Shown: positions 548 through 61,462 of the stretch, piece after piece
Numbering within the stretch: position 1 is the stretch's first letter
Layout: each line of letters starts with the position of its first letter
Source: an uncultured delta proteobacterium
GTDB lineage: Bacteria; Myxococcota; Myxococcia; Myxococcales; Anaeromyxobacteraceae
Reading direction: 5' to 3'
Length of the DNA: 64,000 bases
NCBI GenBank assembly: GCA_963828255.1
Contig: CAWHDZ010000026.1
Span: forward strand, 1 to 64,000
Notes under the pieces: model-generated
Databases searched by the model: none
What the model was told of the DNA's origin: nothing
The model's input: the letters and a program-made list of their open reading frames with translations, nothing else
Position numbers and translations under genes: made by a program

Positions 548-678
548 GCGTTCAGTGTCGCATCGATCTCTGACATCGCGCGAGACGGCGAACCGGTTGA
601 TTCACCATGCGTGGATTGGCCGCACGTGACTCCGGCTCCACCACCCTGCTAGCCTCCTTCCTTCCCCGGAGGAACCCC

Positions 679-3606
679 TTGCCCGGGAGCGAAGACAAGC
701 GCGACGGCGCAAAGGCACCGAGCGCCGGTGAACCCGGCCCGCTCTCCCGCCTCATCCGGGAGCTGGCCGACGCCCCCGGGGAGGAGGTCCTGGAGGCCTG
801 GAAGAGCGAGCTCCAGCCCGGCGATCGGGTGGGCCGCTTCGAGATCCGGCGCGAGGTGGGGCGGGGCGGCTTCGGGGCGGTCCACGAGGCCTTCGACACC
901 GAGCTGAACCGGGTCGTCGCGGTGAAGGCGCTCCGCCTGTCCCGCTCCCGGAAGGAGCTCTCCTCCGACTGGATGAAGAGGGAGGCCGAGGCCGTGGCGC
1001 GCCTCGACCACCCCTGTATCGTCACCCTGTTCGACGTCGGCACCTGCCCCTCCGGGCCCTACCTCGTGATGGAGCTCCTTCGCGGGAAGACCCTGGCGCA
1101 ACGCCTGGACGACGGGCCCATCCCCACCGGAGAAGCGCTGCGCATCTCCGAGGAGATGGCCCGCGGGCTTGCGCACGCCCACGAGCGGGGGGTGCTGCAC
1201 CGGGACCTCAAGCCGGCCAACGTCTTCCTCTGCGACGACGGCCGGGTGAAGCTGCTCGACTTCGGTCTCGCCCACCTGCTCGGCAAGCCGGGCGAGGCGA
1301 GCGGCGGGACGCCCGCGTACATGGCGCCGGAGCAGGCGCGGGGCGGAGAGATCGATGCGCGGGCCGACGTCTTCGCGGCGGCGGTGACGCTGCGGGAGAT
1401 GGTGACCGGGAGGCGCGAGCCGGGGGTCGGCGCGTCCATTCCACGGGCGCTCGCCCGGGTGCTCGATTGCGGTGCCTCCCCGAACCGGGAGGACCGGCCA
1501 CGGGACGGGACCGCCTGGCGGGACGAGATCCGGGAGTTCCAGCGATCCCGCGCGCGACCGCGAACGGTCCGGCGGGTCGCCGGGCTCGTGCTGGCCGGGC
1601 TGCTGCTCGGAGCCGCCGTGGCGGGCATGGTCCTGGAGCGCAGGTCGGCCGGCCGGATCCTCGGTCTCGCGTCGGCCCCCGGAGAGCGCATCCCCATCGC
1701 AGTCGCCGACGTGGTGAACGAGACCGGCGAGAAGGAGCTCGACGTCCTCTCCGGCCTCCTCGTCACCTCCCTCGAGCAGTCGCGCCGGCTCACGGTGATG
1801 ACGCAGGCCCGGGTGCTCGACCTCGCGAGCCGGGCCGGCCGCCGGGACGCGGTCCGGGTCGACGAGACCATCGGGCGAGAGGTCGGAAAGGCCCACGGCA
1901 TCCGGGCGCTGCTCCTCCCCGCCATCCGGCGGCTGGGGACGACCTACTCGCTGGAGATGCGGGTCATCGACCCCGAGCGGGACGAGCACCTCTTCACGCT
2001 GAGCGACCGGGCCACTTCAAAGGAGGCGCTCCTCGACCTCCTCGACCGGCTCTCGGAGCGGACCCGGGCGGGACTGGGGGAGGGAATGGACGAGGTGAGC
2101 CGGGCGAGCGTGCAACTCGGCGAGTCGGTCACCCGCAGCGTCGAGGCCTACCAGCACTACCTCGCCGGACTGGAGGGCTGGCACCGGGACGGAATGAGGG
2201 CGATCGGCCTGCGTGAGTTCCAGGAGGCGCTTCGACTCGATCCGGGCTTCGCGGCAGCACACGGCGAGCTCGCCGAGCTCTTGCAGCATGGCTACCGGCA
2301 GCCCGATCGGGCCGCTTCCCATTGGCGCGCCGCCAACGACCTCCTCCAGCGGATGCCGGAGAAGGAACGGCTCCTCCTCCGCCTCAAGCGGGCGCACCGC
2401 TCGCCAACGCTCGAACACTTCAGTCGCGAGGAGGCCCTCCGCTTGGGAGATGAGATCCTCGCTCGATTCCCTGACGACAAGTTCGCCGTCACCTCGGCGG
2501 CCGAGGCATTCGAGTCCTTCGAGTTGCAGGCGCGGTCGGAGAAGGCGCTCCGTCGGGCCCTGGAACTCGACCCCGGATACTTCTGGGCGGCCGACTCACT
2601 CGCCGACCAGCTGGCTGCCCTGCCGTCAGATGCCCTGAGTGTCGCCCGGACTGCCGTCGCCGTCCGGCGGAACCCTGCGAACCTCAGCATCCTTGCCGGC
2701 GCGCAATGGGCCGCGGGAGACGATGCGGGGGCCGCGTCCACGGCGCGGGAAATCCTGCGCTCCGAGGGTGGAAGGAATTCGCTGATCGCTGCTCGGGCCT
2801 GCAACACACTGTACGAGATGGGCGCGGGAGACGAGTGCATCCCGCTGTGGACGCACATGATCGAAGATGGCGAGAACGACATGGAGCGCAGTTACGCCTC
2901 GTTCGAGCTCATGAAGTCGCTTGCCCACCAGGGCCGGATCCGGGACGCGCTCCGGATCGCAACCACCGCCCCGGACCTGGCCGGCCCGGCTCCGCCCGAG
3001 TTGCTCGCAAACATTCATCAAGTCGGACGCTCCCGGCTGGAGTCTCCCCAGGCCATCGCGCCGGCACGGCGCATCTCCAATCCCCAGCTCCGACGGAACT
3101 TCCTATCCTGGCTGGGTGCGGGGGACGAGGCCGAGCAGATCACGACGTCCCTGGGGGGCAAGGGCTTCGAGGTGGTCGAGAAGGTGAACAGCGCCATCGA
3201 TCTGGTGCGCCGGGGCCAGCCGGCCGCGGCTGAGCCGATCGTTCGAGCGGTCAGGACGGAGATCAGTCGACGGTGGTACTCGAGCAGCCTGTTCGGCATC
3301 GCGGCGTTCCATGCAGAGATTCTGCTCGCGGTCGGTCGCGACGCCGACGCCGCAGGGATCTGGCCCTCGCCGCTTCCCTGCCGTTGCACGGACCAGATGG
3401 ACCACGCGGTGCAGTATCCACGTTTGGCGATCCACCGCGCCCATGCCATGGAGCGGCTCGGCCGTCGCGCCGACGCCCTGCGGGAGCTGGACGGTGTGAT
3501 CGCCTTCTGGAAGGAGGCCGACTCCGACCTCCCACTCCTCGTCGAGGCGAAGTCCATGCGCGCGCGGCTGGCGAGGAGCGCCGTCGTCGATGGAGTGAGG
3601 CCGTGA
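679..3606 (+). CDS. Ser/Thr protein kinase with TM helix and TolB-N-like/TPR C-terminal region
   Basis: GRGGFG, VAVK, HRDLKPAN, DFG, GTPAYMAPE; hydrophobic VAGLVLAGLLLGAAVAGMVL; TPR-like helices. TTG start at 679 follows GGAGG (668-672). Confidence 0.9.
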   Translation: MPGSEDKRDGAKAPSAGEPGPLSRLIRELADAPGEEVLEAWKSELQPGDRVGRFEIRREVGRGGFGAVHEAFDTELNRVVAVKALRLSRSRKELSSDWMKREAEAVARLDHPCIVTLFDVGTCPSGPYLVMELLRGKTLAQRLDDGPIPTGEALRISEEMARGLAHAHERGVLHRDLKPANVFLCDDGRVKLLDFGLAHLLGKPGEASGGTPAYMAPEQARGGEIDARADVFAAAVTLREMVTGRREPGVGASIPRALARVLDCGASPNREDRPRDGTAWRDEIREFQRSRARPRTVRRVAGLVLAGLLLGAAVAGMVLERRSAGRILGLASAPGERIPIAVADVVNETGEKELDVLSGLLVTSLEQSRRLTVMTQARVLDLASRAGRRDAVRVDETIGREVGKAHGIRALLLPAIRRLGTTYSLEMRVIDPERDEHLFTLSDRATSKEALLDLLDRLSERTRAGLGEGMDEVSRASVQLGESVTRSVEAYQHYLAGLEGWHRDGMRAIGLREFQEALRLDPGFAAAHGELAELLQHGYRQPDRAASHWRAANDLLQRMPEKERLLLRLKRAHRSPTLEHFSREEALRLGDEILARFPDDKFAVTSAAEAFESFELQARSEKALRRALELDPGYFWAADSLADQLAALPSDALSVARTAVAVRRNPANLSILAGAQWAAGDDAGAASTAREILRSEGGRNSLIAARACNTLYEMGAGDECIPLWTHMIEDGENDMERSYASFELMKSLAHQGRIRDALRIATTAPDLAGPAPPELLANIHQVGRSRLESPQAIAPARRISNPQLRRNFLSWLGAGDEAEQITTSLGGKGFEVVEKVNSAIDLVRRGQPAAAEPIVRAVRTEISRRWYSSSLFGIAAFHAEILLAVGRDADAAGIWPSPLPCRCTDQMDHAVQYPRLAIHRAHAMERLGRRADALRELDGVIAFWKEADSDLPLLVEAKSMRARLARSAVVDGVRP

Positions 3607-6368
3607 AGGAGCCCGCCGCCGGTAGCCCCGGCCCGCTCTCCCGGATCCTCGGGGAACTCGCGGCCGCTCCCGGAGACGGGCTTCTCGAGGCCTGGCAGGA
3701 GGAGCTGCGTCCGGGCGACCGTCTCGACCGCTTCGAGATCCGGCGCGAGGTGGGGCGGGGCGGCTTCGGCGCAGTCTTCGAGGCCTGGGACGGCGAGCTG
3801 GGGCGGGCGGTGGCCATCAAGACCTTGCGCCCTGGCCGGACGCGGAAGGAGCTCTCGGCGGGATGGATCCGCAGGGAGGCCGAGGCGGTGGCGCGGCTCG
3901 GCCACCCCGGGATCGTCACCATCCACGACGTCTGCAACTGCTCGGCCGGGCCGTATCTCGTGATGGAACTGCTCCGGGGGCGCACGCTGGCCCAGCGGCT
4001 CGAGGAGGGCACGCTCCCGGCGCTGGAGGCGGAGCGGATCGCCGCGGAGATGGGGATGGCGCTCGCCCACGCGCACGGACGCGGCGTGCTGCACCGCGAT
4101 CTCAAGCCGGCCAACGTCTTCCTCTGCGACGACGGCGGGGTGAAGCTCCTCGATTTCGGGCTCGCCCACCTCCTCGGGACGCCTCAGGACGGCGGAGGGG
4201 GAACCCCAGCATACATGGCGCCGGAACAGGCCCGGGGCGATGCGATCGACGAGCGGGCCGACGTCTTCGCGGCCGGAAGGGTGCTGGAAGAGATGCTCGG
4301 GGAGCACCCATCACGGCGGCTTTCGGAGGCGGTCGCGGCCGCCACCGCGCCGGATCGCGAGGCGCGCCCGAGGGACGGCAAGGCCTGGCTGGACCTGCTC
4401 CAGCACAACCGACGCGCCGCCGAACGTGGCGCCCGCACCCGGAAGCTCGCGTGGATGGCGGCCGGGCTCCTGGCCCTCGCTGCGGGGATCGCCGGTGTGG
4501 CGACCTGGCAGGAGCGCAGGGCCCACGACCTCGTCGATGCGGCAGGGCGGATCACCGTGGCGGTGGCCGACTTCCAGAACGCGACCCGCGACCCGGACCT
4601 GGACGGGCTCTCGGGCCTCCTCGTCACGTCCCTCGAGCAGTCCCGGAAGCTCCGGGTGCTCACGCGCGGGCGGCTCATCGAGCTCATCCGGCAGATGGGG
4701 CTCGATCGCGGCCAGCGGATCGACGAGGCGCTGGCCCGGGAGGTGGGAAAGAAGGCGGGCGTGCGCGTGCTCCTGCTCGCATCCGTGCAGAAGCTCGGGG
4801 AGACGTACGTGGCGGAATTGCGAGCCATCGACCCGGAGCGTGATGCCTACCTCTTCACCCTCCAGGAGAAGGCTATCGGGAAGGAGGGGCTGCTCCCCCT
4901 CATCGACCGGCTCTCCGACCGGGCCCGCGTGGAACTCCGGGAGGGGCAGGCCGACGTGAAGGCGAGCGAGGTGAACGTCGCCGAGGCGGTGACGCCCAGC
5001 CTGGAGGCCTACCGGCACTACTTCCGGGGGCTGGAGCGGAGCGCCCGCCTCGACGACGACGGCGCGCTGGCCGAGTTCAAGGCAGCGCTCGCCATGGAGC
5101 CCCGCTTCGCGCTCGCGGAGCTGGAGATCGCCCAGCTCGACACTCTTTACGGCAGGGACGGCGACCCGGCCTTCCAGCGGGCGTCCGCACACGCGGAGAC
5201 ACTGCCGGTGAAGGAGCGCGAGCTCGTCCGTGCGGAGATCGCTCTCCACGCGGGCAGGAGGGCCGACGCGGTCGCCATCCTCGAGCCCCTGGCCCTGCGC
5301 TTCCCCGACGATCGATTCGTCGCCCGTGCCGCCGGAGGCGCGGCGGGGTGCCCCGAGGGCATGGCCCACCGGCGGAGGGCGCTCGCGCTCGCGCCCGACT
5401 GGGACCGGGCCCGGCTCGACCTCCTGAACTGCCTCCTGTGGCAGGGGAAGTCGGAGGAGGCGATCGCCGAGGCAGAGGGCGCGGAGCAGGCCCGCCCGAC
5501 CAGCTCGAGCGCGACGGCCGTCGCCCTGGCGCGCTACGAGTCGGGCGACGTCGACGGGGCCATCGCCGCGGCCCGGCGCGCCGGCGAGCGCGGGCATACC
5601 AACTGGAGCCGGGGCATCCTGATCTCGGCGCTGGCCACGCGCGGCGCCTTCGACGAGGCGGCGACGGAAGCGAGAGGCCTCTCCGGGGAGATGAAGAACA
5701 TGCAGTGTGTCGTGCACGCCGAGATGGGGCAGCTCGGAGCCTGCCTGACCATCGGAGACGACATCGTCCGTGCGAACGGAACCTGGCCCGGAGGCCTCCG
5801 CAACCGTCGCGCTGCAATCGCCGTGGCCCGGGGCCGGGCACCCCCCGGGGACTCGCCGTCCGCAATCGCCCTGGACGGGTGGTGGGGCCCCTTCACGGTC
5901 ATGCTCATTCGGGACCCGGACGAACTCGCGGCCGCCGCCCAGGCCACCGGGAACGAGACGGCGATCGGCCAGATGTACAGGGCCCTGCTGGCCGGGGAGC
6001 GTGGGGACGTCGCGGGGGCCCTCGCGCAGCTTCCCGTCGAGGGAAGGGTCCTCGGGGACCTCCAGCTCTACTACCGGGGAATCTACGCCTCGGAACTCGG
6101 CCGCGACGCCGAAGCGATCGCCGCGTTCGCCCAGCTGGAGAAGAGGAACATCTCCTACTTCGCCAACGTCTACCGGGCCTTCCTCCTGGCCCGCGGCCGC
6201 TACCTCACCGCCCTTTCCCTCGAACGCATGGGCCGCCGCGACGAGGCCCGCGCGGTGCTCGCGAAGCAGCTCGACCGCTGGAAGGACGCGGACCCCGACC
6301 TCCCGCTCCTCGCCGAGATGAAAACCCTTTGCCGGAAAGTCGCCTGCCAGCCAGGAGCCTCCCCGTGA
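3603..6368 (+). CDS. Ser/Thr protein kinase with TM helix and TPR region (tandem paralog)
   Basis: Same kinase motifs; GTG start overlaps the previous TGA (GTGA); TM LAWMAAGLLALAAGIAGVATW. Confidence 0.9.
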   Translation: MKEPAAGSPGPLSRILGELAAAPGDGLLEAWQEELRPGDRLDRFEIRREVGRGGFGAVFEAWDGELGRAVAIKTLRPGRTRKELSAGWIRREAEAVARLGHPGIVTIHDVCNCSAGPYLVMELLRGRTLAQRLEEGTLPALEAERIAAEMGMALAHAHGRGVLHRDLKPANVFLCDDGGVKLLDFGLAHLLGTPQDGGGGTPAYMAPEQARGDAIDERADVFAAGRVLEEMLGEHPSRRLSEAVAAATAPDREARPRDGKAWLDLLQHNRRAAERGARTRKLAWMAAGLLALAAGIAGVATWQERRAHDLVDAAGRITVAVADFQNATRDPDLDGLSGLLVTSLEQSRKLRVLTRGRLIELIRQMGLDRGQRIDEALAREVGKKAGVRVLLLASVQKLGETYVAELRAIDPERDAYLFTLQEKAIGKEGLLPLIDRLSDRARVELREGQADVKASEVNVAEAVTPSLEAYRHYFRGLERSARLDDDGALAEFKAALAMEPRFALAELEIAQLDTLYGRDGDPAFQRASAHAETLPVKERELVRAEIALHAGRRADAVAILEPLALRFPDDRFVARAAGGAAGCPEGMAHRRRALALAPDWDRARLDLLNCLLWQGKSEEAIAEAEGAEQARPTSSSATAVALARYESGDVDGAIAAARRAGERGHTNWSRGILISALATRGAFDEAATEARGLSGEMKNMQCVVHAEMGQLGACLTIGDDIVRANGTWPGGLRNRRAAIAVARGRAPPGDSPSAIALDGWWGPFTVMLIRDPDELAAAAQATGNETAIGQMYRALLAGERGDVAGALAQLPVEGRVLGDLQLYYRGIYASELGRDAEAIAAFAQLEKRNISYFANVYRAFLLARGRYLTALSLERMGRRDEARAVLAKQLDRWKDADPDLPLLAEMKTLCRKVACQPGASP

Positions 6369-7186: not shown

Positions 7187-7674
7187 CCGCCCTCGCCCGC
7201 TTCAAGTCCCCGGTCGGGACCCTCTCGGTGGAGGCCACCGACGACGGGGTCTGCAGCGTCCGCTTCGGCGGCCGCGACGGGGTGCGCCCGCCCATCAGCA
7301 AGAAGACCCGCCACAACCTGGAGGCCGGGCTCCAGGCCCTGGCCGACTACTTCTCCGGCCAGCCACCGCTCATGCCGCCCCTCGACCTTCACGGCACCGA
7401 GCACCAGCGAATCGTCTGGGAGGCGCTCCAGGGCGTCCCCTGGGGCGAGACCATCACCTACGGTGAACTGGCCGAGCGCCTCGGCGGTCGCGGGGCCCGG
7501 GCCGTGGGCCACGCCAACGCCCGCAATCCCGTGGCCATCCTGGTCCCCTGCCACCGGGTGGTGGCCGCCGGCGGAGGCCTGGGCGGTTACGCAGGCGGCA
7601 CGGACAAGAAGGCCTGGCTCCTCGCACACGAGGCCGCCCACGGGCCCGTGCTGCGGTCGCCGCGCAAGGCCTGA
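7183..7674 (+). CDS. ogt: Methylated-DNA-protein-cysteine methyltransferase
   Basis: PCHRV active site, TYGELA, RAVG, GGYAGG. Confidence 0.93.
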   Translation: MTALARFKSPVGTLSVEATDDGVCSVRFGGRDGVRPPISKKTRHNLEAGLQALADYFSGQPPLMPPLDLHGTEHQRIVWEALQGVPWGETITYGELAERLGGRGARAVGHANARNPVAILVPCHRVVAAGGGLGGYAGGTDKKAWLLAHEAAHGPVLRSPRKA

Positions 7675-7684
7675 GGAGGTTTCG

Positions 7685-8453: not shown

Positions 8454-9554
8454 CTACTGCCTCGTCCGGTAGTGCTTCGCGAAGTCCAGGAAGAGGTCGC
8501 TGGGGGTCTGGTCGAACCCGAGAGGCTGCATGAGCAGCAGCCATCCGACCAGCAGGGCCCGGGCCGTCGAGGCGGCCCGGGCTCCCAGCACCCCCACCGA
8601 GAGCGGCGCGAAGAGGAGCACCGCACCGTGCCACCAGTCGTAGATGTCGGTGAGCGCGAGCCCCAGCGCCGAGAGCACCAGGCCCGCCGCCAGCGGCCCC
8701 CCGTACCACCAGGAGGCGGCGGCGGCCGCGCCGCTCGCCGCCACCACCGCCCAGAACCTGGCCCCATGTCCAATGACTCCCAGTGAAGGGTGGAGCGTGT
8801 CGAGGTAGAGCTTGGTCACCGGCCACTGGAGCAGGAAGGTCCCCACCACCACCAGGCCGGCCGCGGCGACCACCGCGATGGCGGTCCAGGGGCGCCGCCC
8901 GCGCGGCTCCCGGAGCCCCTGCCAGAGCGCCACCGCCCCCAGCGGCACGAGCGCGACGGCGCGGAAGTGGAGCATCCCGGCGCAGGCGAGCCAGAGCAGC
9001 GCCGCCCCGGGGCGCCGGCGGTGCACCTCCCGCATGGCCATGGCCCCCGCGCCCAGGAAGGCCGGGTCGTAGAAGCCCTGCAGCGCGAGGCGGATCAGGT
9101 AGACCCATGCGATCATCCCGACCACCGCGCGCGCCCCTGGCGCCAGGTCGGCGAGCAGCAGGAACATGGCGAGCATGGCCAGGTGGGCGACGACGAGCAT
9201 CCACAGGACCCCCACGCGGCCGAACGTCTCCTGCGTCATGGGCACGAACCGGCCGACGAGCGCAGTCGGCAGGAAGACCGCGAACATCCCCGGCGGGTAG
9301 TTCACCGGCATCCGGGGCCAGGCCCCGGACTGCTGGGGATACTGGACTCCCCGCGACGACTCGGCGAGCGGCAGGCGGTAGGCGTCGATCCCGCGGTGGA
9401 GGAAGACCCAGGTGGCGTGGGCGTGGTGCAGGTGGTCGGTGTAGCCCGCCGACAGGTCGCCGTAGGGGCTCTGGTTGGTGAGGGGGACGAGCGCGGTGAG
9501 CCCCAGGGAGACTGCGACCAGCGCGAAGAGCGCGCGGCGCGGCGGCTTCTCCAT
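8454..9554 (-). CDS. Polytopic membrane protein, GT-C (GT87/DUF2029-like) glycosyltransferase candidate
   Basis: Many TM segments; first-loop Asp (YTDH) and NYPPG motif. Confidence 0.55.
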   Translation of the reverse strand: MEKPPRRALFALVAVSLGLTALVPLTNQSPYGDLSAGYTDHLHHAHATWVFLHRGIDAYRLPLAESSRGVQYPQQSGAWPRMPVNYPPGMFAVFLPTALVGRFVPMTQETFGRVGVLWMLVVAHLAMLAMFLLLADLAPGARAVVGMIAWVYLIRLALQGFYDPAFLGAGAMAMREVHRRRPGAALLWLACAGMLHFRAVALVPLGAVALWQGLREPRGRRPWTAIAVVAAAGLVVVGTFLLQWPVTKLYLDTLHPSLGVIGHGARFWAVVAASGAAAAASWWYGGPLAAGLVLSALGLALTDIYDWWHGAVLLFAPLSVGVLGARAASTARALLVGWLLLMQPLGFDQTPSDLFLDFAKHYRTRQ

Positions 9555-10585: not shown

Positions 10586-11830
10586 ATGACATCGGTCCTG
10601 GCGATGATCCTGGCGGGCGGCGAGGGACGGCGCCTCGACCCGCTGACCCGCGAGCGCGCCAAGCCGGCCGTGCCGTTCGGCGGCCGCTACCGCATCATCG
10701 ATTTCGTCCTCTCCAACTTCGCCAACTCGGGCGTGGTCCGGATGAAGGTGCTGGTCCAGTACAAGTCCGACTCCCTCAACACCCACGTGCAGCGTGCCTG
10801 GCGGCTCACCTCGCTCCTCAACGAGTACGTGGAGATCGTGCCGGCCCAGATGCGCTACGGGCCCAAGTGGTTCGAGGGCTCGGCCGACGCCATCTACCAG
10901 AACCTGAACATCATCACCGACGAGGAGCCGGAGCACACCTTCGTCTTCGGCGCCGACCATGTCTACCGAATGGACGTGCGCCAGATGCTCGACTACCACA
11001 CCGACAACCAGTCGGACCTGACCGTGGCGGCCATCCCGGTGCCGCGGGCCCTGGCATCCGAGTGCGGGATCATCGAGATGGCCGCCGACGGCCGGATGGT
11101 CGGCTTCGTCGAGAAGCCCCGGCCCGGCACCGAGAAGACCATGCCGGGCGACGACACCCGCTGCCTGGCCTCCATGGGCAACTACCTCTTCCGCACCGAC
11201 GCGCTGGTGCAGGAGATCGTCCGCGACGCCGGTGACGCCACCTCGGCCCACGACTTCGGCAAGTCCATCGTCACCTCGATGCACTCCCGCAAGCGGGTCT
11301 TCGTCTACGACTTCATGACCAACAAGGTTCCGGGCCAGTCGGAGAAGGAGCGGGGCTACTGGCGCGACGTGGGGAGCCTGGACGCCTACTACCAGGCCAA
11401 CATGGACCTGGTGGACGTGGACCCGGTCTTCTCCCTCTACAACTTCGACTGGCCAATATTCACCATCCGTTACAACTATCCCCCGGCCAAGTTCGTCTTC
11501 AACAACGAGAAGGACCGGCGCGTCGGCCATGCCACCGACTCGCTCATCTCCGAGGGCTGCATCGTCTCGGGCGGCCACGTCCACCACTCCATCGTCTCGC
11601 CCCGGGTCCGCATCAACAGCTACTCCTACGTGGAGGGCTGCATCCTCTTCGAGGACGTGACCGTGGGGCGGCACAGCAAGATCCGGCGCGCCATCATCGA
11701 CAAGCACGTGGACATCCCCCCCGGGACGGTCATCGGGTTCGACCCCGAGGAGGACAAGGCGCGCTTCCAGGTGACCGAGAGCGGCATCGTGGTCATCCCC
11801 AAGGGGATGCGGATCGAGCCGAGGGGCTAG
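10586..11830 (+). CDS. glgC: Glucose-1-phosphate adenylyltransferase
   Basis: [49 protein letters not shown]. Confidence 0.97.
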
Positions 11831-16848: not shown

Positions 16849-17454
16849 CTACAGCGCGAACCCGGCCGCCACCTGCGGCACCCAGTAGGCGCAGACGCCG
16901 GTGCAGTTGGTGAACACCCGCTCGTAGGCGATCCCCAGCAGGAACGTGGCCGGCCCCACCGAGGCGAAGGAGAAGCCACCCCGCGCCCCCCAGGCGTCCT
17001 GGGGCAGGAAGCCGCCGGAGACGAACCAGTGGGCGTAGTAGCCGCCCACGAACGGCACCACCCCGCCCGGGACCGGGAGGAACCAGTCGATCCCCGGCTT
17101 CACCATGAACACGGACTGTGAACTCCCGAAGGCGACTCCCAGGTCCAGGGTGGGGAGGAGCCCTCCCACGACGAAGTACCCGACACCCGCGCCCAGGCTC
17201 ACCGAACCCTGGCCGTAGGCGAAGGCGGCTCCGAGCGTCCCCCAGACGCGCAACCGGCGCAGCGACCACTCCGGGACCGACTCCTGGGCCGGCGGCAGCG
17301 CACCCGGCCGGGGCGGCGGCTCGGGAACCGGCTCGACCTCCTCCACCGGCGGGGGCAACGGGGGGGGCGGCTGCGACGGCCCCACGTACTGGGCGCGCGC
17401 CAGCCCGGGACAGAGGGAGAGGGCGATGAGGAGGGCCAGGAGCGGGCGCCGCAT
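16849..17454 (-). CDS. Secreted/outer-membrane protein with Pro-rich linker and small beta-barrel-like C-terminus
   Basis: Signal peptide, PPPP linker, alternating amphipathic strands ending AGFAL. Confidence 0.6.
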   Translation of the reverse strand: MRRPLLALLIALSLCPGLARAQYVGPSQPPPPLPPPVEEVEPVPEPPPRPGALPPAQESVPEWSLRRLRVWGTLGAAFAYGQGSVSLGAGVGYFVVGGLLPTLDLGVAFGSSQSVFMVKPGIDWFLPVPGGVVPFVGGYYAHWFVSGGFLPQDAWGARGGFSFASVGPATFLLGIAYERVFTNCTGVCAYWVPQVAAGFAL

Positions 17455-19193: not shown

Positions 19194-21457
19194 TTCCCGA
19201 TCCGTACACGGCGGGTGAATAGGGTCACGTCGCCCTCCTGCTGCGCCACCGCCCAGGGCGGGCGCGCAGCCGCCACGGCCGCGCCGGCCGGCGGCAGCCC
19301 CGGCGACTGGTCCGCGACCACCACCTCGAGCGGCCCGGGCCCGGACGCGCGGAGCTCCACCTCGACGCCCCCGGGGCGTGCCGGGAGCCGGTAGACCCAC
19401 CACCCGCCGTACCAGCGGGCCAGCTTGGGCACGGGGTCGGGGACGGCCGTGCCGTCGAAGGTGAAGGAGCGAACAATCACCGAGGGTGGAACCGCCACCT
19501 GCAGCTCGGGGGCCCCGCGCGGCGAGCGGAGCCGGGCGCGCCAGCGGACGGCGTCCCCCTCGCGCGCCGCCTCCAGCTCCTCCACCACCGGCCCCTCCAC
19601 CGGAAGCGGGGCCGCCGGAGCCTCGAAGGAAGGCCGGAGCGCGCCCCAGCCGAAGCGGACCCGGGCCGAGGGGGAGAAGGGTGCGGCCGCGCGGACCTGC
19701 TCGGGGAGGCGTCCCGTGTCCGCATGTGCGAGGACGCGGGCTGCGCCAGAGTCGGCGTCCTGGTGGAAGTAGACGATCACCCGCTCCGGCGCGTCGGCGT
19801 CGGCGACCGGGAGGAGGACCGCCACGGCGAGCGATACGGCCCCCATGGCGGCCGGGAGCGCCACGGCGAGGACGCGAACGCGGGACGAGGCAGCAGCGGC
19901 GAGGGGTGCGAGCGGCACGGCGACGAGCGCGACGGTGGCGGCCACCGCGGGGCCAGCCGCGTGCCCGAGAGCGGGGTAGAGCAGCCACGCCGGCGGGAGC
20001 AGCACGAGCCCCGCGGCGAGCAGGGTGGCGAGGTCGGCGAAGGCGCGTCCCGGATCCCCCGCACGACGGCCCGGGAGCCCCGCCACGCCGCCGGCGATCG
20101 ACGGCGCCAGGAGGAGGTACGAGGCGCCGGGAAGGGTCGCTGCCAGCGCCACCGCGCCCGCGGCGAGACCGAGGAGGATGCCCGGGCGGAGGCCCGCGCC
20201 GGCGCGCCGTCCCAGGACGGGCGCCGGCAGGAGGCCGCCGACGAGTCCGGCGAGGAGGAAGGAGGCGACGAGCGGCCCGGGACTCGCCACCCAGGGACGG
20301 AAGATCGGGTCGAGCCCGAGGGCGCGACCTGCACCGTACCCGAGGACGGCCGCCGCCCCGGCGGCCAGCGGAAGCGCCGCCACGCCGAGCGCGATCCGCC
20401 CCACCCCGGCGGCGCCGCTCCGGACGTCGGCCACTGCCGACGCCAGGGCGAGGAGGAGGGCGGCGAGGGCGAGCGGCAATGCCCACCCCTCCGGAAACCG
20501 GACCACCCAGCGACCGAGCACGTCGAACCAGACCGACTCGCCGCCCGGGGCGCCGGGCTCGGAGAACGCGCGCACCAGCGCGAGCGCGTTCTCCCCCTGG
20601 TGCTGCACCGAGCGTGAATCGAGGTGGGCCATGTCGTCGCGGGGCGTGTGGTACCGGACTGCACCGTCGATGAAGGCCAGGTTCGCGCCCGGGACGCCCA
20701 GGCGCCGCAGCACGGTCAGGTTCGTGTCGTTGGGGAGCAGCCGGTACACGGTGGAGAGGAGCGAGCTTCCCACCGGGCGCCGCGCCCCCGAGGCGAAGCG
20801 GCTCGCGACGGCCGCGCCCGACCCGGCGGTCTCGAAGAGCAGGCTCGGGCCACCGGTGCCACGCGATTCCAGGTTCACCACGGCGCCCACGCCGCGCGCC
20901 GCCGGGTCGAGGAGGAATGCCTCCGCGCCGCCCAGCCCCGACTCCTCGGCGTCGTCGACGAGCACGACCACGTCGGACGCCGCCGGCTCGGTCCGGAGCG
21001 CCCTCGCGATCTCGAGGGCGATGGCGACGCCCGAGCCGTCGTCGGCGGCGCCTGGCCCGGCAGGGACCGAATCGAGGTGCGCGGAGAGGAGCACCGCGGG
21101 GCCATCCCCGCGGCCCGGAAGCCGGGCGATGACGTTCGCGACCGGCGTGCAGGTGAGGTAGCGGTTGCAGGTCACCGACCGGGCGATCCGGGGCTCCACG
21201 CCGAGCTTCCGCAACTCCGCGGCGACCTGCTCGCGTACCCGCGCGTTGGCTTCCGTCCCGGCGGGGTGGGGAACGCCGTCGCCGGCGGCGTCGAGCACGC
21301 GACGCAGCTGCGAGAGCGCCCGCCCGGCCGAGAAGGCCTGGGCGGGAGCGGACGACGGAAGCGGTGCCGGGGGCTGGAGCCCGAGCCACGTCGCGGCGAG
21401 GACCGCTGCGAGGAGGAGGAGTCCCCAGGCGAAGGCGCGCCCGCGTGTCGGGGGCAT
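19190..21457 (-). CDS. M28 family metallopeptidase with multiple TM segments
   Basis: SAHLDSV, GAADDGSG, AEESGL, NLESRG, YHTPRD, followed by a TM region. Confidence 0.9.
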   Translation of the reverse strand: MPPTRGRAFAWGLLLLAAVLAATWLGLQPPAPLPSSAPAQAFSAGRALSQLRRVLDAAGDGVPHPAGTEANARVREQVAAELRKLGVEPRIARSVTCNRYLTCTPVANVIARLPGRGDGPAVLLSAHLDSVPAGPGAADDGSGVAIALEIARALRTEPAASDVVVLVDDAEESGLGGAEAFLLDPAARGVGAVVNLESRGTGGPSLLFETAGSGAAVASRFASGARRPVGSSLLSTVYRLLPNDTNLTVLRRLGVPGANLAFIDGAVRYHTPRDDMAHLDSRSVQHQGENALALVRAFSEPGAPGGESVWFDVLGRWVVRFPEGWALPLALAALLLALASAVADVRSGAAGVGRIALGVAALPLAAGAAAVLGYGAGRALGLDPIFRPWVASPGPLVASFLLAGLVGGLLPAPVLGRRAGAGLRPGILLGLAAGAVALAATLPGASYLLLAPSIAGGVAGLPGRRAGDPGRAFADLATLLAAGLVLLPPAWLLYPALGHAAGPAVAATVALVAVPLAPLAAAASSRVRVLAVALPAAMGAVSLAVAVLLPVADADAPERVIVYFHQDADSGAARVLAHADTGRLPEQVRAAAPFSPSARVRFGWGALRPSFEAPAAPLPVEGPVVEELEAAREGDAVRWRARLRSPRGAPELQVAVPPSVIVRSFTFDGTAVPDPVPKLARWYGGWWVYRLPARPGGVEVELRASGPGPLEVVVADQSPGLPPAGAAVAAARPPWAVAQQEGDVTLFTRRVRIGK

Positions 21458-21472: not shown

Positions 21473-21565
21473 CTACTGCCGGCTCGACGCGAGGATCGCC
21501 GCGACCACGGCGATCGCAGCCAAGAGGAGGATGGCCCCGACGGCCAGGATCGCCAGCTTCTTCAC
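21473..21565 (-). CDS. Putative 30-aa single-TM small protein
   Basis: GTG start overlaps the response regulator stop; MKKLAILAVGAILLLAAIAVVAAILASSRQ; AGGAG upstream. Confidence 0.5.
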   Translation of the reverse strand: MKKLAILAVGAILLLAAIAVVAAILASSRQ

Positions 21566-28416: not shown

Positions 28417-31264
<2,848 letters not shown>

Positions 31265-32187: not shown

Positions 32188-32643
32188 CTATTCCTCTCCC
32201 CGGTCGTCGGCGACGGGATCGAACGGTTCCTCGCCGCGTTCACCGCGCTCGCCGAACTCGGGGCGCGGGCGCTCCTCCTCGACCGGCGCGACCACCACGT
32301 CGGCCTCGACCTGCCGCGCCTCGAGGTCGATGTCGTCGGCGACGCGGATCGACTCGAACTTGGTGACGACGTCGAGCATCTTGAGATTCCGCTCGAACTC
32401 GGCGACCAGGCCCGGCTTGCCCAGGTACAGGCAGTGAATGTAGAGCGCCTTCTGCAGCTTCGCGACCGGGAAGGCGGTCTTGCGACGCCCCTGGTTCGTG
32501 AAGCGGATCACCTTGCCACCCTCGCGGCTCACCACCGCGCGGAGGCGCTCCTTGATCTCTTCCACCTGCTCGTCCGGGGTCTCCGGCTTGATCAGGTAGG
32601 TGGTCTCGTACTCGCGAACGAGACGCTTCTGGATTTCGGCCAT
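32188..32643 (-). CDS. rpsF: 30S ribosomal protein S6
   Basis: [20 protein letters not shown]; position upstream of rpsR and rplI. Confidence 0.92.
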
Positions 32644-41572: not shown

Positions 41573-43012
41573 ATGGACGTCCTCTTCGTCTCCTCCGAGG
41601 TTGCCCCCTTCTCCAAGACCGGCGGGCTGGGCGACGTCGCCGCCTCCCTGCCCGGCGCGCTCTCCGCCCGTGGCCACCGGGTGGCGGTGGTCACGCCCCG
41701 CTACGGCGGGATCGACCCGCAGCGGCACGGGTTCACCTGGCTTCCCACCGCGCTGGAGGCCCGCGGCGAGCACTGCGGGCTGTGGCTCAAGAAGGGCGGG
41801 CCGGGTACACCAGAGGTGTACCTCCTGGAGCACGACCTCTTCTATGGATTCCGCCAGAACCCCTACGGCGACGGCGGGGGCGACTTCCCGGACAACCCGG
41901 CCCGCTTCGCGTTCCTGGCCCGGGCCGCGCTCGAGCTTCCGCGGGCGCTCCGGTTCCGGCCGGCGGTGGTCCACTTCAACGACTGGCAGACGGCGCTCGG
42001 CCCATGGTTCCTGCGCGCCGAGCACCACGACGACCCGTGGCTCTCCGGGGCGCGCAGCGTCTACACCATCCACAACCTGGCCTACCAGGGCATGTTCCCG
42101 AAGTCGTTCATGGACGTCCTCGGGCTCCCCTGGTCGATCTTCCGTCTCGACCGCGGGGTCGAGTTCCACGATCAGCTCAACTTCATGAAGGCCGGGCTCT
42201 CCTTCGCCGACGCCCTCACCACCGTCTCGCCCAACTACGCCCGCGAGGTCCTCACCGTCGAGGGCGGCTACGGCCTCGACACCGTGCTGCGCAGCCGCAG
42301 CGGCGACCTCTTCGGGATCCTGAACGGCATCGACGACAAGGAGTGGAACCCGGCCCACGACCCGCACCTCCCGGTCCACTACGACTGGCGCGACCTGCGC
42401 GGCAAGGTCCGGGTCAAGGCGGCCCTGCAGGCCGAGCTCGGACTCCCGGTGAAGCCGCACGTCCCTCTGGTCGGCCTGGTGGGGCGGCTCGCCGACCAGA
42501 AGGGCATCGACCTCCTGGCGGCGGCCACGCCGGCGCTGCTCCGCTCCGACGCCCAGTTCGCCCTGCTGGGCAGCGGGCAGCGGGAGTTCGAGGAGTTCTT
42601 CGCCTGGGTGGGACGCGAGCGGCCCGACCGCTTCGCGGCCCGCATCGGCTTCGACGAGGGGATGGCCCACCGCATCGAGGCCGGCGCCGACCTCTTCCTC
42701 ATGCCCAGCCGGTTCGAGCCCTGCGGGCTGAACCAGATGTACAGCCTGCGCTACGGCACGCCGCCGGTGGCGCGTGCGGTGGGCGGGCTCGTGGACACGG
42801 TGGAGGACTATGACGGGTGGAAGCGGGGGAACGGCTTCCTCTTCGGCCCGCTCGACCCGGTGGCGCTGGTGGTGGCGACGCGGCGCGCCCTCGACGTCTG
42901 GCGCGACGTGCGCGCCTGGCGGGGGATCCAGGAGCGCGGGATGGAGATCGACTTCTCCTGGGGGAGGAGCGCGGAGCGGTACGAGGCGCTGTACCGGGGG
43001 CTGGCGGAGTAA
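41573..43012 (+). CDS. glgA: Glycogen synthase
   Basis: KTGGLGDV, NDWQT, TIHNLAYQG, PSRFEPCGLNQ. Confidence 0.96.
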   Translation: MDVLFVSSEVAPFSKTGGLGDVAASLPGALSARGHRVAVVTPRYGGIDPQRHGFTWLPTALEARGEHCGLWLKKGGPGTPEVYLLEHDLFYGFRQNPYGDGGGDFPDNPARFAFLARAALELPRALRFRPAVVHFNDWQTALGPWFLRAEHHDDPWLSGARSVYTIHNLAYQGMFPKSFMDVLGLPWSIFRLDRGVEFHDQLNFMKAGLSFADALTTVSPNYAREVLTVEGGYGLDTVLRSRSGDLFGILNGIDDKEWNPAHDPHLPVHYDWRDLRGKVRVKAALQAELGLPVKPHVPLVGLVGRLADQKGIDLLAAATPALLRSDAQFALLGSGQREFEEFFAWVGRERPDRFAARIGFDEGMAHRIEAGADLFLMPSRFEPCGLNQMYSLRYGTPPVARAVGGLVDTVEDYDGWKRGNGFLFGPLDPVALVVATRRALDVWRDVRAWRGIQERGMEIDFSWGRSAERYEALYRGLAE

Positions 43013-46532: not shown

Positions 46533-47789
46533 ATGCGGTCCATCCTCCACCTCGACCTCGACGCCTTCTTCGCCTCGGTCGAGCAGCTCGACGATCCGGG
46601 GCTCCGGGGGCGGCCGGTCATCGTGGGGGGGACCTCGGGGCGAGGGGTGGTCTGCGCCGCCAGCTACGAGGCGCGCCGTTCCGGGGTGCGCTCCGCCATG
46701 CCCACCGCGGAGGCCCGCCGCCGCTGCCCCGCCGGTGTCTTCCTCCCCCCGCGCTTCGAGCGCTACGGGGAGCTGTCCCGCCAGGTCTTCGGCATCTACC
46801 GCCGCTACACGCCTCTCGTCGAGCCGCTCTCCCTCGACGAGGCCTTCCTCGACGTGACCCGCAGCCGCGCCCTTCACGGGGAGCCCGGGCACATTGCACG
46901 AAAGGTGAAGGACGAGGTCCGGGAGGGGACGGGCCTCACCGTCTCGGCCGGCGTGGCCGACTGCAAGATGGCGGCGAAGATCGCCTCCGACCTGGGGAAG
47001 CCCGACGGGCTGGTGGCCGTGCCCCCCGGGACCACCGCAGCGTTCCTGGAGCCGCTCCCGGTCTCGCGCCTGTGGGGGGTGGGGAAGGTCACCGGGCAGG
47101 CCCTGCGCGCGCTCGGGATCGCCACCATCGGGGAGCTGGCCCGCTTCCCGGAGCAGGTCCTGGTGGAGCGGTTCGGCTCGCAGGGCGCCCACATGCGCGC
47201 CCTCTCCCGCGGCGACGACCCGCGCCCCGTCGTCCCCGACGAGGAGGCCCACTCGGTCGGGGCCGAGGACACCTTCGAGCGCGACCTCCTGGGGGAGGCG
47301 GCGCTGCTCCCGCAGCTGCTCGACCAGAGCGTGCGCGTGGCCCGGAGGCTCCGGGAGGCGGGGTTGCGCGGCCGGGTCGTGACGCTCAAGGTGAAATTCG
47401 CCGACTTCGAGCAGCTCACCCGCCGCTCCACGCTGCCCCACCCCACCGACGACGGCGGGGAGATCTACCGGTCGATCCGGGAGGACCTGGCCCGGGCCGG
47501 GCTCGACCGGCCGGTTCGGCTCACCGGGGTGACGGTGTCGGGGTTCGACGCCGGGGAAGCTCCGAAGGACCAGCTCGGGCTCTTCGGAGGGGAGCCGGAG
47601 ACGGCCCCGAGGGAGGGGGAGGGGAAGCGCGAGGCGCTCAACGCAGCTCTGGACGCCCTGGCCAACCGCTTCGGCGAGGGGGCGGTGAAGCCGGCCACCC
47701 TGGTGGAGCGGGAGCCCGAGACGCTGCGCGCCCGGATCCGCTGGCCCACCCGTGGCGGCAAGGGCGGCGCCGGGCCTGGACCGACCTAG
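46533..47789 (+). CDS. dinB: DNA polymerase IV
   Basis: HLDLDAFFASVE, ASYEAR, SLDEAFLD, KPDGL. Confidence 0.96.
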   Translation: MRSILHLDLDAFFASVEQLDDPGLRGRPVIVGGTSGRGVVCAASYEARRSGVRSAMPTAEARRRCPAGVFLPPRFERYGELSRQVFGIYRRYTPLVEPLSLDEAFLDVTRSRALHGEPGHIARKVKDEVREGTGLTVSAGVADCKMAAKIASDLGKPDGLVAVPPGTTAAFLEPLPVSRLWGVGKVTGQALRALGIATIGELARFPEQVLVERFGSQGAHMRALSRGDDPRPVVPDEEAHSVGAEDTFERDLLGEAALLPQLLDQSVRVARRLREAGLRGRVVTLKVKFADFEQLTRRSTLPHPTDDGGEIYRSIREDLARAGLDRPVRLTGVTVSGFDAGEAPKDQLGLFGGEPETAPREGEGKREALNAALDALANRFGEGAVKPATLVEREPETLRARIRWPTRGGKGGAGPGPT

Positions 47790-50671: not shown

Positions 50672-51567
50672 GCCCGCGCCCCCCCGACGAGGTCCGCGGC
50701 TCCACGCAGACCCAGGTGGTGATCCTGACCGGCGTCTCGGGGTCGGGGAAGACCACCGCGCTGCGCGCCCTCGAGGACGGCGGCTTCTACTGCGTCGACA
50801 ACTTCCCCATCGTCTTCCTCGAGAAGCTGCTCGAGCTCTCCGGCCACACCGCCGGCGAGGTCTCCCGCATCGGCCTGGTGGTGGACGCTCGCGAGCAGCG
50901 CTTCCTGGCCGACGCCCCCCGGATCGTCGAGGACCTGCGCCGCAAGGGGGCCGACGTCACCGTCCTCTTCTTCGACTCCTCCGACGAGTCGCTCATCCGC
51001 CGCTACTCGGAGACCCGCCGCCGCCACCCGCTGGCCGGGGGCTCGGGCAGCGTCCCGGAGGGCATCGCCGCCGAGCGCAAGGCGCTCGAGCCCCTGCGCG
51101 CCGTGGCCGACGAGGTGGTGGACACCACGCGGCTCAACGTCCACGAGCTGAAGCGGCTTGTGCACAACCGCTTCGTGGGCGCCGGCGCCGACGCCATGGG
51201 CGTGACCCTGGTCTCCTTCGGGTTCCGCACCGGCATCCCCGCCCACGCCGACCTGGTCCTCGACGTGCGCTTCCTGCCCAACCCCTACTTCGTCCCCGAG
51301 CTGAAGCCCTTCCCGGGCACCGAGCCCAGGGTGCGCGACTTCGTCCTCGGGCAGGAGGACGCGCAGCGCTTCCTGGAGAAGGCCGAGGACCTGGCCGGAT
51401 TCCTCATCCCCCGCTACCGCGCCGAGGGGAAGACCTACCTGACCGTGGCCATCGGGTGCACCGGCGGGCGCCACCGCTCGGTGGCCATCGCGACCGAGCT
51501 GGCGGCCCGAATGGGCAAGCGCGGGATCCCGGTCCGGGTCTGGCACCGCGACGTTGACAAGGAGTGA
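50668..51567 (+). CDS. rapZ: RNase adapter RapZ (YvcJ)
   Basis: [39 protein letters not shown]. Confidence 0.95.
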
Positions 51568-51573
51568 ACGATC

Positions 51574-54250: not shown

Positions 54251-54252
54251 CC

Positions 54253-56025: not shown

Positions 56026-56057
56026 TCCCCGCCCCATCCTCCGGGTCGCCGGCGTCC

Positions 56058-56087
56058 TTGACACGTCCGTTCCAGCGGACGTAAGAC
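56058..56087 (+). promoter_or_regulatory. Putative metK promoter with a dyad in the spacer
   Basis: TTGACA-N18-TAAGAC; ACGTCCG-N6-CGGACGT inverted repeat at 56063-56082. Confidence 0.55.
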
Positions 56088-56111
56088 AGCCACCCTTCCC
56101 CCGGGAGAACC

Positions 56112-57269
56112 ATGCAGAAAGACTTCCTCTTCACCTCCGAGTCGGTGACCGAGGGCCATCCGGACAAGATGGCCGACCAGATCTCCGACGCCGTCCTCGA
56201 CGCCGTCCTGGCCCGCGACCCCAAGGGACGGGTGGCCTGCGAGACCCTGCTCAAGACCGGCTACGTCATGATCGCCGGCGAGATCACCACCAAGGCCCAC
56301 GTCGACTACCAGAAGCTGGCCCGCGACACGGTGAAGAGGATTGGATACACGCACAGTGACATGGGCTTCGACGGCCACACCTGCGCGGTGCTGGTCGCGG
56401 TGGACCAGCAGTCGCCCGACATCGGGCAGGGAGTGGACACCGGCGGCGCCGGCGACCAGGGGATGATGTTCGGCTACGCCTGCGACGAGACGCCCGAGCT
56501 CATGCCGGCGCCCATCCAGTACGCCCACCACCTCACCCGCGAGCTCTCCCGCGCGCGCCGCCGCGGCCTCGACTTCCTGCGCCCCGACGGCAAGGCGCAG
56601 GTGAGCGTCGAGTACCGGGACGGCAAGGTGGCGCGCATCGACACGGTGGTGGTCTCCAGCCAGCACTCCGACGCGGTCTCGAACAAGACCCTCCACGCCG
56701 CCGTGCGCGAGGAGGTCATCGCCCGGGCGCTTCCGAAGAAGCTCGTCGACCGCAAGACCCGGATCTTCATCAACCCCACCGGCCGCTTCGTCGTGGGCGG
56801 ACCCATGGGCGACACCGGCGTCACCGGCCGCAAGATCATCGTGGATACCTACGGCGGCATGGGGCGTCACGGCGGCGGGGCGTTCAGCGGCAAGGACCCC
56901 TCCAAGGTCGATCGCTCGGCCGCCTACATGGGGCGCTACATCGCCAAGAACGTGGTGGCGGCCGGCCTGGCCACCCGCTGCGAGGTGCAGGTGGCCTACG
57001 CCATCGGCGTGGCCGAGCCGGTCTCGGTGATGGTGGAGACCTTCGGGACCTCCACCGTCTCCGAGGAGGCGATCGCCGCTGCGGTCCGCGAGGTCTTCGG
57101 CCTCACCCCCGGCGAGATCATCCGGGGCCTCGACCTGCTCCGCCCCATCTACCAGGCCACCGCCGCCTACGGCCACTTCGGCCGCGAGGAGAAGGCCTTC
57201 ACCTGGGAGCGCACCGACAAGAAGGGCGCGCTCCAGGCCGCCGTCGGGCGCAAGGGCAAGCGCAGCTAG
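56112..57269 (+). CDS. metK: S-adenosylmethionine synthase
   Basis: [28 protein letters not shown]. Confidence 0.98.
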
Positions 57270-57296
57270 CCCGTTCTGGGGATCCGGGGAGCCGGC

Positions 57297-58169: not shown

Positions 58170-58762
58170 CCATCGAGGCGCTCCGGAGGGCGCTCGCCGG
58201 GCGCCCGTTCACGCTCCTCGACGTCGTCGCGCTCGAGCCGGCCTACCGCCATTCCATCGGAAAGCTCGCCGGGGCGGCAGTGCTGGTGCCGATCTTCACC
58301 CGCGACGGCGAGCCCCACGTCCTCATGACGCGACGGCGCGACGACCTCCGGCTCCACCCCGGCCAGATCTCCTTCCCCGGAGGGCGGATCGATCCGACCG
58401 ACAGGGACGCCCAGGCCGCCGCGCTCCGCGAGGCCGAGGAGGAGATCGGCCTCGCTCCCGCCGACGTGGAGGTGCTGGGAAGGCTCGGCGAGGCGCTGGT
58501 GGTGACGTCCGGGTTCCGCTTGACGCCCTGGGTGGGCCTCGTGCCATATCCGTACCCGTACGTCGCCCAGCCCGACGAGGTGGCCGGGCTGGTCGAGTTC
58601 TCCGTCGCCGACCTCCTCGCGCCGGGAAGTCATCGGGTCGAGGCCCGGGAGGCGTTCGGCATGGCGCACGAGGTCCACACCTTCGACGTCGGCGGGGAGG
58701 TCGTATGGGGCGCCACCGCGTGCATCCTCCACGAGCTCCTCGCCGTCTGGAGATCCGCATGA
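58166..58762 (+). CDS. Nudix CoA pyrophosphatase (NudL-like)
   Basis: HPGQISFPGG, ALREAEEEIG, VWGATA. Confidence 0.9.
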   Translation: MTIEALRRALAGRPFTLLDVVALEPAYRHSIGKLAGAAVLVPIFTRDGEPHVLMTRRRDDLRLHPGQISFPGGRIDPTDRDAQAAALREAEEEIGLAPADVEVLGRLGEALVVTSGFRLTPWVGLVPYPYPYVAQPDEVAGLVEFSVADLLAPGSHRVEAREAFGMAHEVHTFDVGGEVVWGATACILHELLAVWRSA

Positions 58763-59847: not shown

Positions 59848-59878
59848 GCGGTCGGCGCCGGGCGCGAAGGGGGACGAC

Positions 59879-61249: not shown

Positions 61250-61462
61250 CGCCGGGACGCAATGCCCGACGAAAGCCAAGCCCAGCAGCTTTTCCATGAC
61301 ATTGACGGCGAGTGAACACGCACTCAAGGTCATCGTTCACGCTTCGAGATTGACCCTCGGACCGATCGTCACGCCGCCTTCCCCGCTCGGCCCGGCACGA
61401 TCCAACCGGGTACATCGCCACCGATCTCCGGCGGTCACCGCAAGAAAATGTCGGCCGTATCC

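Follow-up and report, generated by a model that had tools for sequence, protein, structure and literature searches.

What is one short palindrome doing in gene after gene of a myxobacterial chromosome? The window considered here is the 64-kb stretch G000:C26:1-64000 from the genome of an uncultured member of the Anaeromyxobacteraceae (G000; 4.31 Mb in 40 contigs, 71% GC). The initial annotation of this window listed 18 copies of a gapped 17-bp palindrome, RTTCAC-N5-GTGAAY, and took them for a DNA-level signal bound by a dimeric chromosome-organising protein or a global regulator. The palindrome is a real, selected, genome-wide feature. A small stand-alone XRE protein very probably binds it, and we tentatively propose that this protein acts as a nucleoid-like coat.

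All 18 listed sequences were found in place, each with z above 1, where z is the score of a site in a model fitted genome-wide. The model recovers 18/18 of them and adds 4 further sites in the window. Exact matches to TNCAC-N5-GTGNA number eight against 0.25 by shuffling, a count reached in 0/100 shuffles; allowing up to two mismatches to the 17-mer gives 13 against 1.9. Sixteen of the 18 lie in coding DNA, one of which (51553) overlaps a stop codon, while those at 600 and 61301 are intergenic. The rare-codon contexts quoted for individual copies are correct, and the labels ogt, glgC, kinase, GH57, glgA and dinB agree with Pfam; two further genes we take to be mreB and metK from a reading of their sequences. 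No Rfam family matches within the window. One element of the described motif fell away, namely the outer R and Y, since the fitted consensus is (W)TTTCAC-T-N3-A-GTGAAA(W).

Excess of the palindrome throughout the genome

TCAC-N5-GTGA is the strongest outlier among all gapped 4-mer palindromes, with 305 copies where spacers of equal codon phase have a median of 16.5. In coding DNA, 58 copies of TTCAC-N5-GTGAA were observed against 0.3 in 12 synonymous-codon shuffles, 273 of TCAC-N5-GTGA against 28, and 994 of the one-sided TTCAC-N5-GT against 80. With an N4 spacer the shuffles gave 7.4 for 10 observed and with N6 0.3 for 2; other spacers changed by at most about 1.6-fold where counts were sizeable. 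The excess of N5 over N4 and N6, which the initial annotation had made the touchstone of its proposal, is present in these codon-shuffled controls.

The half-sites act additively: one perfect half with any NNNAC partner suffices (1230 against 147), and near-perfect halves also pair with one another. The arms do not covary (TTCAC with GTCAC, 102 against 2.6; GTCAC with GTCAC, 44 against 4.9), which rules out a hairpin or cruciform. A polar signal such as Chi or KOPS was rejected because both orientations are equally frequent, and a methyltransferase target because the weights are graded and G is tolerated in place of A in otherwise perfect copies (47 against 3.9).

A mixture model fitted against spacers 8, 11 and 14 yielded the above consensus and about 2,350 excess sites genome-wide; at z>1 the count is 1,342, compared with 127 in controls. 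C-N5-G is imposed in this model by construction, the partners TTCAG, TTCAT and TTCAA having shown no excess beforehand; an earlier mixture model had picked up codon phase instead and was discarded. Genes were taken from the analysis's own caller (3,893 genes, 87% coding), so that genic and intergenic labels carry some error, more so for the phage G317 discussed below (55% called coding).

The assembly contains duplicated syntenic blocks of 83-90% identity (C6 and C10, C29 and C31, C23 and C40, C4 and C10), including two oriC/parAB regions, which points to a second related organism in the bin (contamination 6.6%). Such an organism does not explain the excess, because the excess is found on all contigs.

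Selection on codons and residues

Third codon positions are A or T in 42% of cases within site arms and in 5% elsewhere. Synonymous A/T-ending codons in the arms were retained in relatives in 39/100 and 19/28 cases, compared with 21% and 16% elsewhere, while those in the spacer and flanks were not retained (5/20 and 1/9). The suggestion that synonymous sites are held to preserve a DNA-level signal thus gains support from both the enrichment of these codons and their better retention in orthologues. Residues were changed too, since peptide contexts able to spell a perfect site are doubled at N5, with 202 against 95-121 at four in-phase spacers.

In codon alignments, 31/80 sites of G000 survive in G009 (400 kb sampled) and 12/22 in G011 (80 kb), compared with 1/55 in the more distant G020 (480 kb). 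A site-by-site comparison gave 14/23 retained in G011 and 0/12 in G020. Sites with z>2 were retained in 43/97 cases against 0/9 for pseudo-sites, a control of only nine cases. The pattern is one of gain and slow loss under weak selection rather than of fixed positions.

Placement along the genome

Site density is alike on 40/40 contigs and in both orientations. Divided into 67 windows of 50 kb, the genome gives near-Poisson counts (mean 15.5 sites, variance 18.4), and on the closed chromosome G055 the sites are distributed all round. The matS/MatP, SBS/SlmA and NBS/Noc systems, with which the palindrome had been compared, comprise tens of sites that are restricted to the terminus or kept out of it. 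Their sites are likewise palindromes often inside genes, bound by dimers and serving a role other than transcription. Here, however, there are thousands of sites and a different fold of the candidate binder, and the lack of any regional bias means that the lattice, as we call this array of sites, is not of the matS/SBS/NBS kind.

Intergenic DNA carries 4.1 sites per 10 kb and genes 3.0; convergent gaps carry 6.5 and divergent gaps 4.6. No -10/-35 promoter element was found at a fixed distance from the sites. Pairs of sites 25-100 bp apart occur at 0.19-0.29 of expectation, rising to about 0.65 at 100-200 bp and about 0.85 at 200-1000 bp, whereas control pseudo-sites have pair densities of 0.8-2.1 and mostly cluster. 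A search for tandem operator pairs gave a depletion of close pairs and no clear second-site distance, with a small bump at 11 bp. Genes low in GC at third codon positions (GC3) are poorer in sites (1.9 against 3.5 per 10 kb), and some long site-free gaps span core loci such as the pilus cluster.

A candidate binding protein

Among the 25 HTH_3 matches in G000, two stand-alone basic proteins (isoelectric points 10.6-10.7) share the helix SVSY(V/I)SMLERG. In both, of 69 and 77 residues, the helix-turn-helix is the only domain. The match to Pfam HTH_3 scores 74.7 bits against a cut-off of 23, and the predicted fold has five helices (predicted local distance difference test score 95). Motif sites lie 7 and 205 bp upstream of the gene for the 69-residue protein. 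This protein is found in 35/36 genomes of the family and is 96-100% identical within genus g1, to which G000 belongs and where orthologues have a median identity of 84%. A site with z>0 lies upstream of 27/29 parsed orthologues, including 16/18 outside g1. Homologues with the helix SVSFLSMIERG occur across the order, and a TTTCAC-N5-GT site precedes 13/19 of them, whether the genome is rich or poor in sites; in each of these two surveys one of 30 loci was left unparsed. An upstream site is also present in 3/3 cases for the f3 paralogue and 11/16 for second paralogues, with only 2/6 for the longer paralogue. The background for random genes is 2-9% in four relatives and 14% in G000.

The palindrome had been likened to the Streptomyces BldD box, TNAC-N5-GTNA. 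BldD sites lie at promoters, and BldD has a C-terminal domain that binds cyclic di-GMP. The kinship holds for the AC-N5-GT geometry and the XRE fold. The candidates differ in consisting of a helix-turn-helix only, without the cyclic di-GMP domain, and the lattice shows no promoter bias.

The nearest structures are the controller (C) proteins C.AhdI and C.BclI (1y7y, 2b5a), C.AhdI aligning with a TM score of 0.86 and 44% identity. C.AhdI, C.BclI and C.Esp1396I (3clc) are likewise stand-alone five-helix XRE proteins of about 70 residues, with the same box geometry, AC-T-N3-A-GT, and an operator before the protein's own gene (PMC3351150). In C.Esp1396I the GTC of the GACT...AGTC box is recognised by T36 and R46 and the outer TG by R35, and binding of the dimer introduces a bend of 40-50 degrees into the DNA. 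In the XRE protein S34 is nearly invariant and R44 invariant. By spacing, these two residues probably match T36 and R46, with V33 in place of R35, a correspondence that would explain the fixed AC/GT core and the preferred inner T and A. C-proteins differ in that the outer bases here are TTC rather than G, no restriction-modification genes adjoin the XRE gene, and two operators at one promoter are replaced by thousands of single sites in genes. The neighbours of the XRE gene we presume to encode a peroxiredoxin, a glycosyltransferase and a MoeA-like protein.

On these sequence grounds the XRE protein very probably binds the palindrome, and by analogy with C-proteins would do so as a dimer, in keeping with the dimeric binder originally envisaged. 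Other binders fared poorly. A ParB/Noc-like protein was considered as the half-site recalls parS; motif-rich genomes mostly have one ParB, and ordinary parS lies beside parA. For TrmB, whose TGM motif has a reported likeness to the palindrome, G000 has no match over the cut-off. The best scores for a LexA/SOS box before lexA, recA and uvrA are -2.4 to -7.3. When promoter clusters of sites were used to screen for autoregulation, the gene that emerged was DUF72-like and not a regulator.

The first XRE gene is apparently leaderless, and its operator covers the start region in g1, g6, g10 and g11 (L115:1700-1780, L116-L144), whereas in g7, g8 and g9 the operator is placed about 75 bp upstream. Extra XRE copies with variant helices occur in lower-GC stretches of G003 and G034 (L242, L243, L245). 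The Myxococcus xanthus homologue falls in the Q1D8U7 cluster, and its upstream site looks decayed. Its tag may be Mxan_2711, whose mutant is listed as 'Like WT' for rippling; this listing carries no weight here.

Sites in related genomes

Perfect sites are present in 13/13 other genomes of g1 (3-159 copies). Among 301 genomes of the phylum, a tally that includes G215 as one row, only G037, G049, G301, G059, G055, G273 and G042 outside g1 have at least 17 copies, and the large family f6 has 0-12. Half-sites number 103-268 per Mb in g1 and 20-80 in 23 other genomes of the family.

In 480 kb of G020 there are 37 sites against 5-11 in controls. Intergenic DNA, about 10% of the sequence, holds 18 of the 37, but also 13/23 of the matches at control spacers. 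G020 equals G000 in intergenic site density and has about one-seventh of its density in genes. Within orthologous genes, G000 has 61 sites to 6 in G020, and 48 to 1 in G027. None of the upstream sites is shared with G000 orthologues, either in G020 (0/11, 195 pairs) or in G027 (0/3), so a shared regulon is not apparent. The second possibility raised at the outset, a classical global regulon, is thus disfavoured both by this lack of sharing with the sister genus and by the lack of promoter bias.

The second XRE paralogue has a lysine/arginine-rich N-terminal arm in 7/7 g1 genomes read and in 0/9 other genomes of the family, and in site-rich G037 the XRE protein carries a basic tail at its C-terminus. 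The basic arm or tail is a lead to what sets the number of sites; the lineages are too few for a test.

Sites in phages

Viral contigs encode the same XRE helix, at 11 and 25 loci in two surveys. Half-site densities in ten XRE-bearing phage records are 393, 164, 136, 110, 101, 92, 36, 25, 16 and 0 per Mb, so that six lie at 92-393 and four at background, with none in G318. The tailed phage G317 (58.6 kb) has 54 sites against 3-9 at control spacers, structural genes included. This is three times the density of the host, and the spacing is more even than random (coefficient of variation 0.78). G320 has 17 sites against 2-5 and G321 16 against 3-8. Pooling the 25 viral XRE loci gives 85 against about 47, with none or one in several, whereas 67 control viral loci related by terminase show no excess (84 against 89). 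A partial prophage of G000 (C23:73833-87089; integrase, terminase; at a contig end) has 10 sites against 0-3 and is richer than the chromosome. An unrelated phage XRE gene, with the helix SVSYLSMLE, has a near-consensus site (z 7.3) at -72. In viral contigs an integrase query returned no relative, and a capsid query only copies of G317. Beside its XRE gene and lattice, G317 (L246-L248) encodes a Ku-like protein, an exonuclease VIII-like protein and a DNA methyltransferase.

Proposed role and alternatives

Our leading proposal, held with somewhat less than even confidence and resting on sequence comparison, is that the small basic XRE dimer would be a sequence-specific nucleoid-like coat that docks every 2-3 kb, not a promoter switch. 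The ancestral state would have been an autoregulated XRE gene with few sites, as in G027. In g1, each bound site may have come to confer a small benefit acting within about 1 kb. Sites would then fill free intergenic DNA first, the state of G020, and afterwards genes, at the price of rare codons and some residue changes. The benefit would be architectural, given that C-protein dimers bend DNA by 40-50 degrees, and resident phages would gain from it too. Of the nucleoid role originally suggested, the general idea remains the best guess, and organisation of the matS/SBS/NBS type does not.

Several observations weigh against this proposal. Sites turn over, with 49/80 lost in G009, and weaker sites are retained no better than pseudo-sites (35/87 against 19/55). 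Avoidance beyond 200 bp occurs mostly within genes (0.68-0.71) and is weak between them, and may therefore reflect redundancy or a cumulative cost per gene. The lattice does not track the protein: 35/36 genomes of the family encode it, yet G027 shows no excess of sites (4 against 0-7 in 280 kb), so something else must set the number of sites, and a lattice that G027 can dispense with is odd for a structural role. As for the binder, 6/19 order-wide homologues (all four of f6, G314 and G044) have no upstream site, the related genes are not independent, an upstream site could serve another regulator, and the binder families examined were HTH_3, TrmB and ParB only.

The best-placed alternative, which we nevertheless consider rather unlikely, is that a C-protein-like factor now serves as a protein-based mark of self. 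The XRE protein, bound at intervals of a few kilobases, would label DNA as self for a defence or silencing machine, the density of bound protein would license the DNA, and phages would copy both sites and protein. Selection would then have rewritten codons and residues proteome-wide so that a site is available every few kilobases, with phages writing sites and carrying the same helix in an arms race. The tenfold variation in density between genera with the same protein fits this account, as do the many phages encoding the same helix, the site-rich G317, G320, G321 and G000 prophage set against control viral loci without excess, and the poverty of low-GC3 genes in sites. On the other hand, four of ten XRE-bearing phages lie at background, one with no sites, and some long gaps cover core loci. 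No effector was found, in the course of work that included no family-aimed search, and no fusion occurs among longer homologues (five matches).

That the sites are a decoy sink seems less likely again. Inert sites would titrate the host XRE protein, as a buffer or sensor of DNA content, or would absorb phage copies that repress host genes. Site positions are transcriptionally neutral, phage homologues exist, and in Caulobacter a phage XRE protein is reported to occupy the sites of the host XREs and to repress genes of the host (PMC10688885). For a sink, however, numbers suffice, which leaves avoidance over distances up to 1 kb and the costly coding positions unaccounted for, and G317 would be titrating its own protein.

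We give still less credence to a very large regulon, in which a global XRE regulator would act at promoters and through intragenic roadblock or antisense control. Caulobacter XREs with 202-1094 peaks offer a precedent (PMC10688885). Avoidance is strongest within the gene, and G020 has about half of its sites in the tenth of its DNA that is intergenic; yet its control spacers are intergenic-rich too. There are no targets common to genera, convergent gaps hold no fewer sites than divergent ones, and sites lie inside the genes we take for mreB and metK.

It is improbable that another protein or a drive process, such as uptake or a methylation ratchet, makes the lattice, the XRE gene being merely one target. 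DNA uptake sequences and cyanobacterial HIP1 occur in thousands of intragenic copies, more evenly spaced than random, and shape codons and residues. The palindrome shares with uptake sequences their abundance in genes, regular spacing and influence on residues, and the presence of XRE does not predict site density. In contrast to these systems, the palindrome is gapped and degenerate, its candidate binder is a cytoplasmic helix-turn-helix protein, and no link to a receptor or methylase is apparent. Graded, additive weights are unlike those of a methylase site, arms that do not covary speak against a hairpin, ParB, TrmB and LexA all fail, and the same footprint accompanies the helix in an unrelated phage.

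Finally, an absence of selection, with bound sites shielded from the mutation or conversion that drives high GC, is scarcely credible: A/T bases in the arms are indeed lost more slowly, but A/T codons of the spacer and flanks, which lie within that footprint, show no such retention, and a roughly threefold slower loss (an estimate) cannot yield a 12- to 190-fold excess or the extra peptide contexts.

Relation to known systems

The nucleoid-like coat proposed here may be compared with CdbA of M. xanthus, a sequence-specific DNA-bending nucleoid protein of myxobacteria with more than 500 sites; CdbA differs in its ribbon-helix-helix fold, GC-rich direct repeat and intergenic bias (PMC7156744). 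The Caulobacter proteins RtrA, RtrB, CdxA and CdxB and phiCbK TgrL resemble the present set: the host XREs are paralogues with sites in the hundreds, a strong half-site is paired with a weak one, and a phage carries an XRE of the same specificity. They are described as promoter repressors on the basis of overexpression peaks and are not reported to form a selected intragenic lattice (PMC10688885). Intragenic transcription-factor sites are generally held to be unselected noise; those of PhoB in Escherichia coli have no evident regulation, are unconserved and were judged unselected (PMC9934606). Here, by contrast, a putative operator is strongly over-represented in genes, up to 190-fold, and partly conserved.

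The lattice bends both codon use and protein sequence and varies tenfold among genera with an almost identical protein. The series from G027 (no excess) through G020 (some sites, half intergenic) to g1 (thousands, intragenic) would constitute a natural experiment in the passage from regulator to nucleoid protein, and the phage parallel links the lattice to host-virus conflict. An unstudied order-wide regulator, represented by the M. xanthus Q1D8U7 cluster, gains a putative operator. The proposal can be tested directly, since the protein is named, sites can be scored by a weight model, and cultured-type relatives carry fewer of them. No description of this motif in Myxococcota was found in the open-access literature searched, and the main text of PMC5217627 contains no TCAC or GTGA.

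Sites in the window and further observations

Positions of the palindrome in the window, with associated loci elsewhere
Feature	Position	Strand	Remarks
Site, intergenic, 71 bp before Ser/Thr kinase gene	600..616	.	z 2.8
Site in second kinase gene, newly found	5197..5213	.	z 3.5
Site in ogt	7452..7468	.	z 3.0; retained in G011, lost in G020
Site in gene 8454-9554(-)	8772..8788	.	z 4.5; retained in G011
Site in glgC	11458..11474	.	z 2.5; retained in G011, lost in G020 and G055
Site in gene 16849-17454(-)	17107..17123	.	z 1.7
Site at 3' end of M28 peptidase gene	19204..19220	.	z 4.7
Site in M28 peptidase gene	19475..19491	.	z 1.8
Site in M28 peptidase gene	20603..20619	.	z 3.5
Site, newly found	21560..21576	.	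z 1.7
Site in histidine kinase gene	23532..23548	.	z 4.1; absent in G011 and G020
Site in cytochrome c/b gene	27158..27174	.	z 2.2; decayed in G011
Site in presumed mreB	29038..29054	.	z 1.4; identical in G011, lost in G020 and G049
Site, newly found	32423..32439	.	z 1.2
Perfect site in GH57 gene	37581..37597	.	z 5.2; G011 keeps both halves, spacer changed
Site in GH57 gene	38235..38251	.	z 3.0; absent in G011
Site in glgA	41805..41821	.	z 1.1; stronger in G011 (4.0)
Site in glgA, newly found	42438..42454	.	z 1.9; retained in G011
Site in dinB	46894..46910	.	z 3.3; retained in G011, lost in G020
Site over stop codon of RapZ-like gene	51553..51569	.	z 3.2; retained in G011
Site in presumed metK	56345..56361	.	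z 4.4; absent in G011 and G020
Site, intergenic	61301..61317	.	z 5.3; retained in G011 (6.6)
Candidate binder gene, outside window (69 aa)	G000:C15:38612-38821	-	HTH_3
Candidate binder gene, outside window (77 aa)	G000:C40:13459-13692	-	HTH_3
Second XRE paralogue, lysine/arginine-rich N-terminal arm	L233, L226-L228, L230, L232, L316		g1 only
Apparently clustered sites in G049	L107:13195-14024, L109:16813-17941, L200:16555-17053

Elsewhere, the arm-swapped sequence AAGTG-N5-CACTT, with 40 copies in G125 (L092-L094), was set aside: its spacers are nearly fixed, in two fixed sequences often at contig ends, and it likely marks the ends of mobile elements. The sites of G049 are near-perfect, intragenic and apparently clustered (three in one gene), unlike those of G000. 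A site-free lower-GC island of G000 (C8:144281-162777) contains an integrase gene together with what look like restriction-modification genes. The densest promoter cluster of the genome is a divergent gap with three sites (C7:110842-112649; z 4.0, 3.9 and 0.4), flanked by what we take to be DUF72-like and lytic-transglycosylase-like genes. A site just upstream of dnaA is present in both oriC copies (C6:30921 and C10:19313).

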